Positions 45,351 through 61,046 of a stretch of DNA of 64,000 nt are shown here, piece by piece. Position 1 is the stretch's first letter. Each line of letters begins with the position of its first letter. The notes under the pieces are model-generated. The model was not told the origin of the DNA, searched no databases, and worked only from the letters and a program-made list of their open reading frames with translations. Source of the stretch: Glaucostegus cemiculus (Eukaryota); contig CDPCPM010000052.1 in assembly GCA_976551045.1 (NCBI GenBank), positions 13,082,001 to 13,146,000 on the forward strand, in the 5' to 3' direction. A program made the position numbers and the translations under genes.

Positions 45351-45557
45351 ATGTCAGCAGCAGCTCCAGCTCCTCAGCCACTGGCCTCTGTTGGGACAGC
45401 TCTCGCTTTGTCTCCAGAGGTTATGAACCCCAACAAGCCTGGGCGTGTGACTAACCAACTCCAGTACATGCTGAAAGTGGTGGTGAAAACCCTGTGGAAG
45501 CACCAGTTTGCCTGGCCTTTTCATGTGCCGGTCGACGCGCAGAAACTTAACTTGCCA
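45351..45557 (+). CDS. BRD3: BET first coding exon (MSAAAPAP...[40 protein letters not shown]); exon begins at 45236
   Basis: Acceptor ttttacttacag|45236, donor CCA|GTAGGT; an alternative in-frame ATG lies at 45324. Confidence 0.88.
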
Positions 45558-48500
45558 GTAGGTCACACTTTTTGTAAAACAGCACAATTGCCATTGTGAA
45601 ATGCTTTGATTAAAGTTCACATTTATTTATGTTAGCTTCAGTGGTTGCTGGCAGGTTGACCATGTATGGTATTGAGGTAAACAAGAGTTTCCTTGTTCCA
45701 ACCCCACCAGGTCTGCACTGTGTGTTTTGATCTCATAGGGAAGGTAAAGCTTGTGACTATTGGCCTCGCTGCTGTGGTTATGAAGGATGGGGAGATCCGC
45801 TTATTGCCATTGTCTGGTGACCCCTGAGTTGGATAGAGGGGAAATCCAAGCCAGATTAGCGCTCCTGATCACTGTCTACTATCTAAAGAGAAGGAGAAAT
45901 CAGGCAGAATTGCTGTTCCTGGTCACTATTCAACGACCAGAAACAAATGTCAAAATACTTGTTGAATCAGTCCACTGGCATCGGTCGAGGGATGCGGACT
46001 GGACCGCCCATGATGAGTTTAAGAGCCGCGAGGTAATGATGCAGCTCTACAAAACTCTGGTTAGACCACACTTAGATTACTGTGTCCAGTTGTAGTTGCC
46101 TCATTATAGGAAGGATGTGGAAGCGTTGGAAAGGGTGCAGAGGAGATTTACCAGGATGCTGCCTGGTTTAGAGAGGATGCATTACGGGGAGAGACTAAGG
46201 GAGCTAGGGCTTTACTCTTTGGAGAGAAGGAAGATGAGAGGAGACATGATAGAGGTATACAAAATAGTAAGAGGAATAGATAGAGAGGGCAGCCAGTACC
46301 TCTTTTCCAGGGCATTAATGCTCAATACAAGAAGGCATGGCTTTAAAGTAATGCATGGTAAGTTCAAGGGAGATGTCAGAGGGAATTTTTTCACCCAGAG
46401 AGTGGTTGGGGCATGGAATGCACTGCCTGGAGCAGTGGGTGGAGGCAGATACATTGGTCAAATTCAAGAGATTGCTAGATAAGCATATGGAGGAATTTAA
46501 AATAGAGGGATATATGAGAGGAAGGGGTTAGTCTTAGGTGAGGTTTAAAGGTTGGCACAACGTTGTGGGCCGAATGGCCTGTATTGTGCTGTACAGTTCT
46601 ATGATTCTATGACCCTTGCATCAGAGAAGGGGAAATCAACCAATTGCCTGCCCTTGGTCAATGCACAGTGTCCTCTGGGTTAGAGAGGTAATCAGCTAAG
46701 GTTCCTGCTTCTGATCTCCATCTGGCAACTTCTGGTATATATGGGAAAGAAGATCAGCCAGAGCTCCACTGTATCATTGCATATAACCCTTGGTATAAAG
46801 TGTATGAATGGAGACACAGTATGGGGTAATAAAACAAGGCTGGAAGTAATGTAGTAGATGGGGATGGAGTCCTTGTAAAGTACTGATTTTAAAAATGAGC
46901 TGGCTGGTTGATAAGGTGATCAAAAAGAGAAAGTGTCCTTGGATTAATCACAAAAGGTAATAACGTGAGGGGAAGGAAAGGCCTTTGTAGTTGCACATGT
47001 GATCGGAAATCTGATTTGGAATTTTGTGGCAATTTCTCTTGTCTGGCCTGGGGTAGGGTGTGCTGGCCTCAGGAAAAAGTTCAGTCATGATTCACAAGTT
47101 GATGCAGGTCTGAATTTTGATGAGAGGCCTCGTGCCTCAGGAGATGAGATTGTTAAAGTTTGGTTTGACAAGGTGGGGTGATCTAACTGGATACTGATAG
47201 AGTATGGTGGCTCTGGGTCGAAGGGTAGATATCATTTTTTATTGGGTGTCCAAAACAGGAGATCAGGATCTTAGAATTCCATCTAATTTGCTTAAGCATC
47301 TTCACACAATGTACTGTGAGGTGGTAGAACATTGTAGCAGGAGCCTGGGTTAATAATCAGATGGGGTTTTTCAAAGAGGTATGTGTATGGAGAAAAGTGG
47401 GATTTGGGGGATGGGTGGAATATCTGGCTATGGCCTTGCATCTTGGATTATGTCGAGTTGCTGGCCAAGGGCATCAGAATGGCAAATAGTAGATAGATAC
47501 ATAGATACCTACAGCACAATTCAGGCCCTTCGGCTCACAAAGCTGTGCCGAACATGTCCCTACTATTAGGCTTACCCATAACCTTCTATCATATTTACCT
47601 CCATGTACCTATCCAACAGTCTCTTGAAAGACCCCAAAGTATCCGCCTCCACCGCCATCTCCGGCAGCCCATTCCACGCACTCACCACTCTCTGAGTAAA
47701 AAACTTACCCCTAACGTCTCCCCTATACCTTCCCCCTAGCATCTTAAACCTATGTCCTCTTGTGGCCACCATTTCAGCCCTGGGGAAAAGCCTCCGACTA
47801 TCTACCCTATCCATACCTCTCATCATCTTGTACACCTCAATCAGGTCCCCCCTGATGATGAGCTGAGGAAATACCTAATCCATTTAGGTGGTAGTTGGTC
47901 GTGGTATCCATAGAATTCTGAATACCGATGTGTACAGTGGATTTTAAACAGACCCATATCCATGTGTGTATTTCTTAAATGAACTTCTCATTTTCCCTTG
48001 GAGGGAGGGTGGTCTCAATGAACCATTGAAAGTTTAATGAATTTGTACCAAATCTGCTTAAATAGCTGTACAAGGGTGACAAGCTAATTGAATAATGGCA
48101 TTTAGATTGTCTCTGGGTTACTGTGCTGTACATGGTTAGATATGGGGGTTAGTAGGTCAATAGGCATGAGGTTAATGCATTCATGTACAATAAATGTTTT
48201 CAGTTTTCTTGCAGGATGTTAAATCATTTTCTGAAAACCCTTTTCCTAGGATTATCATAAAATCATCAAGCAGCCCATGGACATGGGCACGATAAAGAAA
48301 AGGTTAGAGAACAACTATTATTGGAGTGCGAGTGAATGCATGCAGGATTTCAACACCATGTTCACCAACTGTTACATATACAACAAGGTAATGCATCCAC
48401 AATCAGTCTTTACAGATATACCCATAGTTCCCATTAGTTACCTTCACATTTTTTTTAACATCTGTCCCCTTTGGAGTAGGAATTAAGTGATTTAAAACCT

Positions 48501-60500: not shown

Positions 60501-61046
60501 ATTATCTCCTTGAGTGAAAAATTCCCTCTCTCGAATTAAAGTAAATTCCTATATTTAATATTTATTTCCCTCCTCTGCCCCACCTTGTATTCCTTGGCAG
60601 GCAAGACCTATAAACTGTAATAAGTGACTTGTTTTAGAAGTAGCTGGTTACTTGGTAAATGTGATGCGAGATCCTAAGGGGTGTGAGGTGTTGAGTATGA
60701 ATCTGCACTCCTTTATTTGGCCCAGAATATTTCTATCACTTCCTTGTGTTCAGACCCCTGAAGAAGGCTGCAAAGCAGGTTGTTCCAGTGCATGACTCTG
60801 AAGAGGAGGAGGAAGCTCAGCCAATGTCCTATGATGAGAAGCGCCAGCTGAGCCTCGACATTAACAAGCTGCCAGGTGAAAAACTTGGCCGGGTGGTGCA
60901 CATCATTCAGTCCAGGGAGCCCTCTCTCAGGGACTCTAACCCCGATGAGATTGAAATAGACTTTGAAACTTTGAAGCCAACAACTCTGCGAGAGCTGGAG
61001 AGATATGTTAAATCTTGTTTACAAAAGAAACAACGGAAACCATACA
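45351..61046 (+). CDS. BRD3: BET-family bromodomain protein, BRD3-like (BD1, BD2, motif B/basic region, ET domain); 9 coding exons in window, C-terminus beyond the right edge; BRD2 orthology not excluded
   Basis: Exons 45351-45557, 48250-48387, 49945-50074, 50933-51132, 52107-52478, 57255-57383, 57699-57893, 59083-59312, 60754-61046 join in frame. Motifs include [83 protein letters not shown] and [26 protein letters not shown]. Head-to-head with WDR5, as BRD3 is in human. Confidence 0.9.
46010..46612 (+). mobile_element. Relatively young CR1 (HER1-like) LINE 3' end
   Basis: '[63 protein letters not shown]'; tail (TTCTATGA)n. Confidence 0.9.
47488..47853 (-). mobile_element. Young CR1 LINE 3' end (different subfamily)
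   Basis: Uninterrupted '[35 protein letters not shown]'; tail of TATC/GTATCTA repeats. Confidence 0.9.
48250..48387 (+). CDS. BRD3: BET exon, BD1 core ([46 protein letters not shown])
   Basis: 138 nt; ttttcctag| ... AAG|GTAATG. Confidence 0.95.
48850..49840. mobile_element. Old CR1 fragments (+ ~48850-49110; - ~49120-49840)
   Basis: 'gacttagtagagatgctcaaaatcatt' on plus; 'ggagaccaaaactccacacagtactagaggtgtggtctcac' (antisense VRPHLxYCV) on minus. Confidence 0.65.
49945..50074 (+). CDS. BRD3: BET exon, BD1 end ([43 protein letters not shown])
   Basis: 130 nt; ctcctgcag| ... G|GTATGC; not in the ORF track, translated by hand. Confidence 0.94.
50933..51132 (+). CDS. BRD3: BET exon, P/T-rich linker ([10 protein letters not shown]...PAQPVTK)
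   Basis: 200 nt; ttctttgcag| ... [17 protein letters not shown] matches BRD3. Confidence 0.92.
51753..51818. repeat. (TG)33 microsatellite within a MITE-like remnant (~51630-51960)
   Basis: Seen directly; the flank 'ttacagaaattcacccttgtagaatt' resembles 14625-14700. Confidence 0.95.
52107..52478 (+). CDS. BRD3: BET exon, motif A and first part of BD2
   Basis: 372 nt; tttcag| ... [22 protein letters not shown]...HPMDLSSVK. Confidence 0.95.
52520..52870 (+). mobile_element. CR1 3' fragment about 40 nt downstream of BET exon 52107-52478
   Basis: '[14 protein letters not shown]' motif; tail 'ttccttgtttttcttatgtttct'. Confidence 0.65.
57255..57383 (+). CDS. BRD3: BET exon, BD2 ([43 protein letters not shown])
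   Basis: 129 nt; ccttttgcag| ... CAG|GTATGG. Confidence 0.95.
57699..57893 (+). CDS. BRD3: BET exon, BD2 end, Ser-rich region and start of motif B ([14 protein letters not shown]...[12 protein letters not shown])
   Basis: 195 nt; tgccttag| ... CAG|GTAAGG. Confidence 0.95.
59083..59312 (+). CDS. BRD3: BET exon, motif B and lysine-rich region ([26 protein letters not shown]...)
   Basis: 230 nt; ctcccctcag| ... AG|GTGTGA; phase 2 matches the next exon. Confidence 0.92.
59470..59790 (+). repeat. Polypurine (GGA/GGG) low-complexity tract
   Basis: Seen directly; produces the Pro/Ser-rich spurious minus-strand ORFs. Confidence 0.85.
59825..60140. mobile_element. Tigger-type MITE remnant (related partial copy at ~18830-19105)
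   Basis: 'ggccatacctgggtaacgaac' ... 'gaacccgttcattatccagagatggcc' inverted ends; the segment 'tttgatgcca..cattaca..ggttacca..ttttgtgta.tttctga.ttac.gacaaaat' is shared with ~18970-19050. Confidence 0.6.
60754..61046 (+). CDS. BRD3: BET exon, ET domain
   Basis: 293 nt; tgtgttcag| ... [37 protein letters not shown]...[12 protein letters not shown]. Confidence 0.95.

Follow-up and report, generated by a model that had tools for sequence, protein, structure and literature searches.

The window analyzed here, a 64,000-nt stretch of contig C52 of the Glaucostegus cemiculus genome, carries a BET gene whose nine canonical exons span positions 45351–61046 of the plus strand. All nine have AG/GT ends and consistent phases, and their 631 codons contain no stop; two further exons past the window end complete an open frame that encodes a 716-residue BET protein. 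The start methionine and the N-terminal part of bromodomain 1 are encoded by exon 1 (45351–45557), with this domain continuing through exon 2 (48250–48387) and ending in exon 3 (49945–50074). Exon 4 (50933–51132) encodes a Pro/Thr-rich linker and exon 5 (52107–52478) motif A and the start of bromodomain 2, which runs through exon 6 (57255–57383) and ends in exon 7 (57699–57893), together with a Ser-rich stretch and the start of motif B. Motif B and a Lys/Glu-rich stretch occupy exon 8 (59083–59312), and the ET domain exon 9 (60754–61046). Pfam identifies a bromodomain and the BET/ET domain, and PDB matches cover both bromodomains, placing the gene in the BET family; the acetyl-lysine-binding Asn is intact in both (N114 and N378). 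BET bromodomains bind acetylated histones, while the ET domain recruits transcription cofactors. With this architecture, the window protein would be a standard short BET reader, using its two bromodomains for the former task and its ET domain for the latter.

As the initial annotation had proposed, WDR5 stands head-to-head with the BET gene: eight profile matches to its coding exons lie in order on the minus strand at 344–17683, with the last exon just outside the window. Judged by composition, a CpG-rich island at 28001–29000 (GC 0.57, CpG observed/expected 0.60) is likely the WDR5 promoter, and another at 35001–37000 (CpG observed/expected 0.79 and 0.75) is likely the promoter or a non-coding first exon of the BET gene. 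Directly upstream of the BET start codon, the 5′ part of coding exon 1 (45236–45350, plus strand) preserves an in-frame relic of the N-terminal extension of BRD2 and BRD4, whose score against the extension of either paralog was reached by none of 2000 shuffles. Two in-frame TGA stops interrupt the relic, so the gene lacks the coding extension in its first bromodomain exon that would mark a BRD2 ortholog. An upstream in-frame ATG is possible at 45324, and shark isoforms begin at a matching upstream Met. The usual proline-rich motif is indeed replaced, before residue 22.

The contig reads, in order, COL5A1-like, RXRA, WDR5, BRD3, and VAV. The RXR hinge exon is identical to human RXR-alpha at 46 of 52 residues, in a comparison that included no RXR-beta chain. 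Named matches to the fibrillar collagen are mostly COL5A1, and a tree groups it with COL5A1 at moderate support (81/83). WDR5, RXRA, and COL5A1 thus all lie on one side of the BET gene, the arrangement expected of a BRD3 ortholog. The first exon of VAV, one of three VAV loci in the genome, lies 15 kb downstream. PDB chains for its domain comprise only VAV1 and VAV3, and an Atlas match to VAV2 (0.89) is a lead only; its position makes this gene a candidate VAV2. For the remaining two VAV exons, the PDB matches are ambiguous as to subtype. The neighbors identified for the window gene on C52 belong to the RXRA/COL5A1 block, which in humans carries BRD3 at 9q34, and not to the MHC block.

Four BET loci were found in the genome (30 of 30 candidates scored), each of which falls with a different paralog. 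A quick IQ-TREE analysis of 38 hand-picked rows—34 named proteins out of about 540 fetched and four from G. cemiculus, omitting P0011 (named BRD2, but BRD3-type in its residues), the sturgeon fusion P0001, and unnamed proteins—placed the window protein with six shark and ray BRD3-like proteins, sister to bony-vertebrate BRD3 (SH-aLRT 100). The remaining loci grouped with BRD2 (C196), BRDT (C56), and BRD4 (C320), each at 99. On 392 conserved columns from 20 rows, the window protein again grouped with BRD3 (100/99), and the AU test rejected its grouping with BRD2 (p-AU 2.4e-5). Bromodomain 2 with the linker (100/99) and motif B with the ET domain (99/96) each support the BRD3 grouping alone; bromodomain 1 by itself (43/89) does not separate the two paralogs, and with it the AU test leaves a BRD2 grouping unrejected (p-AU 0.24). 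Of 116 sites distinguishing bony BRD3 from tetrapod BRD2, 66 show the BRD3 state in the window protein, 19 the BRD2 state, and 31 neither. States that it has in common with one paralog only number 10 for BRD3, two for BRD2, one for BRD4, and none for BRDT.

Why, then, does the protein resemble BRD2 at all? Every motif quoted by the initial annotation in this regard is present in the translation, as checked by eye. Its BRD3 letters agree with human BRD3 PDB chains, where aligned, and with gorilla BRD3; its BRD2 letters were compared with bird, reptile, frog, and skate BRD2. The BRD2-like residues also occur in other shark and ray BRD3s, and at five of eight the BRD2-like state is that of the outgroup, so here it is bony-vertebrate BRD3 that is derived. 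Q77 is found in 9/9 BRD2 rows, but in only 3/8 invertebrates, and every BRD4 and BRDT row lacks it. V33 falls at a variable site, so neither residue is demonstrably ancestral. Residues 300–301 are not diagnostic: K-Y is present in 9/9 BRD2 rows, while mouse and tarpon BRD3 carry His and two lizard BRD3s carry Lys. Tree, shared derived residues, neighbors, and the existence of a separate BRD2 together show that the window gene is a BRD3 ortholog. We are close to certain that it is the cartilaginous-fish BRD3, lying in a COL5A1-like/RXRA/WDR5/BRD3/VAV block, and that its resemblance to BRD2 likely reflects, at most of these residues, shared states of older origin from which bony vertebrates later departed, with the direction at each site reconstructed. 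A BRD3 retaining ancestral states was one of two readings offered by the initial annotation, and both the residue comparisons and the tree support it.

The other reading, in which the gene is orthologous to BRD2 and has retained WDR5 as its neighbor from the ancestral state, could appeal to the 19 sites in the tetrapod BRD2 state and to exon 2, whose 46 encoded residues are all identical to those of BRD2 in the same genome. It is contradicted by the AU test, by the RXRA- and COL5A1-type neighbors, and by the presence of a separate, MHC-linked BRD2 on C196. Exon 5 of the latter gene is 98% identical to skate BRD2-like, a beta-2-microglobulin exon lies about 40 kb from it, and MHC class I exons lie about 120 kb away. 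Such a position near beta-2-microglobulin and MHC class I in elasmobranchs is described in a published source (PMC10751288). Nor was a second WDR5-BET pair found: the WDR5 exon chain was found at a single locus genome-wide and is absent from 390 kb around the C196 BRD2, where the best match reaches 48% over 25 residues (E 0.027). WD40 matches on C107 (26–52% identity to WDR5 exons) and on C37 (no match to WDR5 exons) were rejected as further copies, and C106 holds a 76% match to WDR5 over 25 residues without the exon chain. A search for RXRB beside BRD2 found three RXR loci in the genome (C52, C581, and C249), none of them on C196. None of 25 proteasome-family matches fell on C196 or C52, which is uninformative in an assembly of 1511 contigs. 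We give the BRD2 ortholog reading virtually no chance of being correct.

A subtler alternative holds that the gene is BRD3, with exon 2 or the ET exon homogenized with BRD2 by gene conversion that took place long ago, among early cartilaginous fishes, which would make it a true mosaic. The perfect protein match in exon 2 and the ambiguity of the bromodomain 1 tree would fit such an event, but the codons of exon 2 are no closer to those of the genome's own BRD2 (16/41 identical) than in other pairs (68/166), and none of six fourfold sites agrees. The ET exon has 38/62 codons in common with BRD2, versus 127/307 in other pairs (one-sided p 0.003, or about 0.02 once all six exons are allowed for). 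Against this, GC3 in that exon is most alike in precisely these two genes (0.55 and 0.52, versus 0.30 and 0.36), three BRD3-only states survive there (T610, K620, and Q624), and the longest identical run is 23 nt with BRD2 but 26 nt with BRD4. The motif B and ET tree also places the gene with BRD3, and BRD2 and BRD3 sit in different paralogous blocks. Across the codons compared, identity with BRD2 (111/234) is not significantly above that of other paralog pairs (486/1092; p 0.23), so the mosaic initially described is unsupported in the sense of paralog recombination. We regard gene conversion as very unlikely.

Past the nine canonical exons, a frame-preserving cassette exon of 99 nt (63017–63115, plus strand) derives from a fragment of a LINE reverse transcriptase, in antisense orientation. 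It is 70–72% identical over 127–136 nt to the antisense of LINE reverse-transcriptase copies, and its origin in a dispersed repeat is evident from 39 other genomic matches among 40 scored of 421 candidates. Contigs from 4/4 runs of one study of a related organism, presumed to be RNA, contain GT..AG joints on both sides of the exon, and one of the four contains the skipping joint. The exon is annotated in six elasmobranch genera, among which 25–33 of its 33 residues are identical; the other 534 proteins compared, bony BRD3s included, yielded no match (best score 50 versus 142–185). It shows 0/97 differences, against 110/1795 in nine listed intron pieces that are possibly not all orthologous (Fisher p 0.006). 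A probable account, in which we place reasonable though far from full confidence, is that before the shark/ray split an antisense LINE reverse-transcriptase fragment lying in intron 9 of BRD3 became a 33-codon cassette exon, inserted between the ET domain and the C-terminal motif, which selection has maintained ever since, with bony vertebrates lacking the isoform. From its Ser-Pro and Pro-rich motifs, the insert is predicted to be a disordered spacer or docking site, which may tune the partners of the ET domain. Exonized transposable elements are known elsewhere, as with PCBP2, which has an LF-SINE exon, and with antisense Alu exons; here likewise an antisense retroelement fragment yields an alternatively spliced, frame-preserving coding exon, but one that stems from the core of a LINE reverse transcriptase. 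We found nothing bearing on this locus in the open-access literature, although the cassette exon may have been reported elsewhere.

In other respects the window gene is a BRD3 as one would expect it, in the block where it should lie, and its shark and ray orthologs already bear BRD3-like annotations. The "bromodomain-containing protein 3-like" proteins of Rhinoraja (P0003), Pristiophorus (P0005), Heterodontus (P0004), and Carcharodon (P0002) belong to its clade, those of Rhinoraja and Heterodontus being 96–100% identical to it in bromodomain 1, bromodomain 2, and the ET domain. Shark and ray BRD3-like proteins have its BRD2-like residues, have likewise lost the proline-rich motif ahead of bromodomain 1, include the cassette exon in some isoforms, and differ only by lineage-level substitutions. 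Bony-vertebrate BRD3, the sister clade, is 90–95% identical over the same domains (three rows compared) and has the 10 exclusive states, the short N-terminus, and the neighbors in common with it, but differs in K33, N42, N77, A126, a one-residue insertion after S269, R572, and F/L631 (6/6 rows). MHC-linked BRD2 (RING3) is the closest paralog of BRD3 (sister group, 93/96); K42, Q77, T126, K572, Y631, and the lack of the insertion are common to BRD2 and the window protein, whereas the C196 BRD2 has a coding N-terminal extension and a bromodomain 2 only 82% identical to that of the window protein, against 91–94% for bony BRD3.

Had a BRD2 with a WDR5 neighbor been found, it would have placed WDR5 in the MHC block before duplication; the genome says otherwise. 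Two more modest findings accompany this result: the fossil of an N-terminal extension suggests that the short start of BRD3 is derived, and a chromatin reader carries an old, conserved coding exon of retrotransposon origin. More broadly, the locus offers a clean case of how "diagnostic" residues defined from mammals mislead where the mammalian lineage is itself the derived one.

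On the plus strand of the window, the BET gene (45351..61046) has nine AG/GT-bounded exons that together give 631 stop-free codons, and two further exons immediately beyond the window complete a 716-residue protein. An extraterminal-type (ET) domain and a bromodomain are detected by Pfam, and the nearest database entries, 'BRD3-like' proteins of sharks and rays, place the genome within the cartilaginous fish. WDR5 is encoded on the opposite, minus strand (exons at 344-17683), head-to-head with the BET gene. From what is known of the BET family, the product would be a short BET protein, engaging acetylated histone tails through its two bromodomains (N114 and N378 are in place) and bringing in cofactors through its ET domain. 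In the ZA loop of bromodomain 1 (BD1), H58, V59 and Q64 (residues 58-64; 45522-45542) are unlike both BRD2 and the BRD3 of bony vertebrates (bony BRD3). H58 and V59 are common to other shark/ray BRD3s, and the three residues could change the ligand preference of BD1. Long open frames at 43078-43890 (-), 46096-46482 (+) and 47572-47874 (-) resemble LINE ORF2 remnants in their motifs.

The initial annotation read this gene as a BRD2/BRD3 mosaic, proposing either a BRD2 ortholog still linked to a WDR5 copy or a BRD3 retaining ancestral states. Every motif it quoted is present in the printed translation, but the first proposal fails on phylogeny. An exon 5 search (30 of 30 candidates scored) identified four BET loci in the genome: the window gene on contig C52 and genes on contigs C196, C56 and C320, which were rebuilt from genomic stretches, minus one linker exon in C56 and C320. 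Among the 120 hits listed for exon 5 of C196, skate BRD2-like proteins reach 98% identity and tetrapod BRD2 proteins 81-91%. In a quick IQ-TREE analysis of 34 hand-picked named proteins and the four BET genes of this genome, the window protein clusters with six shark/ray BRD3-like proteins as sister to bony BRD3 (SH-aLRT 100), while C196 groups with BRD2, C56 with BRDT and C320 with BRD4 (99 each). An alignment of 20 rows and 392 conserved columns supports the grouping with BRD3 at 100/99, and forcing the group to join BRD2 instead is 45 log-likelihood units worse (p-AU 2.4e-5). Trees of bromodomain 2 with the linker (100/99) and of motif B with the ET domain (99/96) agree; BD1 alone leaves BRD2 and BRD3 unseparated (43/89), the BRD2 grouping not being rejected there (p-AU 0.24). 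Database names of shark BET paralogs are unreliable on their own, since a basking-shark protein labelled 'BRD3-like' (P0243) clusters with BRDT. The BRD4 of this genome carries a Gly/Val-rich insert directly before bromodomain 2 (L004:1454-1956, on C320).

The neighbourhood likewise contradicts a WDR5-linked BRD2, as C52 carries neighbours of RXRA/COL5A1 type and WDR5 was found at one locus. In order, C52 bears a fibrillar-collagen C-terminus (12.617-12.628 Mb, minus; named hits mostly COL5A1, clustering with COL5A1 at 81/83), an RXR gene (12.93-12.96 Mb, minus; hinge exon 46/52 identical to human RXR-alpha), WDR5 (13.080-13.100 Mb, minus) and, downstream of the BET gene, the first exon of a VAV-family gene (13.164 Mb, plus). 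Order and orientations agree with those of the human block, VAV2-BRD3-WDR5-RXRA-COL5A1. WDR5 came up as a single ordered exon chain in a profile search that scored 132 of 274 candidates, and two exon searches of the genome returned no second full-identity match beyond the window. A 76% match of 25 residues to one WDR5 exon (C106:17022418-17022492), without further exons, is another WD40 gene or a fragment. On contig C233, an RXRA-like piece with two exons fused without an intron (L008:1501-1776) is likely a retrocopy fragment. For teleosts, PMC9454494 lists wdr5 as one of the genes adjoining BET genes.

A scan around the separate BRD2 on C196 covered 142 of 194 candidate exons, after removal of nested duplicates and of exons belonging to BRD2 itself. 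Four of them matched Pfam families: two C1-set exons, one exon with an MHC class I domain and one with a zinc finger. The first C1-set exon is beta-2-microglobulin and lies roughly 40 kb from where BRD2 starts, with the class I exons at roughly 120 kb; PMC10751288 describes elasmobranch brd2 as adjoining beta-2-microglobulin and class Ib genes. Clade-B fibrillar collagens occupy four loci (C224, C646, C196 and C52), three sharing their contig with a VAV gene (C224, C646 and C52) and the fourth lying on the BRD2 contig, so that the four MHC paralogous blocks are visible.

What, then, of the BRD2-like residues? Five of the quoted sites look ancestral from the alignment, supporting the fallback of a BRD3 with ancestral states. 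At residue 42, bony BRD3 (6/6) and C56 only have N, whereas BRD2 (9/9), BRD4 (2/2), invertebrates (8/8) and the window protein have K. T126 recurs in BRD2 (8/9) and invertebrates (6/8) but in just 1/6 BRDT and 0/2 BRD4 rows, and the additional residue after S269, lacking here, is confined to bony BRD3 (6/6), as is R at residue 572 (6/6; K in BRD2 9/9, BRDT 6/6, BRD4 2/2, invertebrates 8/8 and the window protein). Y631 is found in BRD2 (9/9) and invertebrates (7/8), bony BRD3 having F or L. V33 is a variable site (M in this genome's BRD2 and in the two skate BRD2s, A in two shark BRD3s), Q77 occurs in BRD2 (9/9) but in just 3/8 invertebrates and in none of the BRD4 or BRDT sequences, and residues 300-301 have no diagnostic value for BRD2 versus BRD3. 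The altered motif before BD1 recurs in each of the six other shark/ray BRD3s and is a lineage trait. In all, 116 sites distinguish bony BRD3 from tetrapod BRD2; at 66 of them the window protein agrees with BRD3, at 19 with BRD2 and at 31 with neither paralog. Of states exclusive to one paralog in conserved blocks, it shares 10 with BRD3, 2 with BRD2 and 1 with BRD4.

Gene conversion from the genome's own BRD2 finds little echo in the codons. Exon 2 encodes 46/46 identical residues, with the same codons at only 16/41 (68/166 in other paralog pairs), and over six exons identical codons number 111/234 for BRD3-BRD2 versus 486/1092 in other pairs (p 0.23). Only the ET exon departs from this pattern (38/62 versus 127/307; p 0.003 prior to correction for six exons); its GC3 is similar in both genes, three BRD3-only residues are present in the BRD3 exon, and the shared excess is weak and probably compositional in origin. 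A further point against BRD2 identity lies upstream of the start. The first coding exon has a strong predicted acceptor at 45236, and the in-frame stretch 45237-45350 (+) aligns to the N-terminal extension encoded at the corresponding exon position in this genome's BRD2 and BRD4 (0/2000 shuffles attain either score). Two TGA stops interrupt this stretch, suggesting loss of the extension in BRD3; the ATG at 45324, which is in frame, corresponds to annotated starts in Heterodontus, Pristiophorus and Narcine.

Downstream of exon 9 lies a cassette exon (63017-63115, +; 99 nt, AG..GT, frame kept). On its antisense strand it matches LINE reverse-transcriptase copies elsewhere in the genome with 70-72% identity along 127-136 nt, and the source element is, to judge by its motifs, presumably of CR1 type. 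In one study of a related organism, whose four runs we guess to be RNA, contigs join it to exons 9 and 10 in 4/4 runs and skip it in 1/4, with GT..AG joints at exon ends. Differences number 0/97 nt in the cassette versus 110/1795 in nine intron pieces among those listed (p 0.006, rough), and 8/425 in the two flanking exons. The cassette is present in 14 of 24 shark/ray isoforms examined, from six genera, with amino acid identities of 33/33 in Narcine, 31/33 in Rhinoraja, 30-31/33 in Pristiophorus, 26-27/33 in Heterodontus, 26/33 in Carcharodon and 25/33 in Cetorhinus, and has no match among the other 534 fetched proteins. In two sharks an acceptor farther upstream is used as well; its use in this genome would cause a frameshift. 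Mention of its origin was not found in open papers, which does not show it to be unreported; isoforms with the cassette are already present in public annotation. It is on this exon, derived from a LINE, that our interest in the locus mainly rests.
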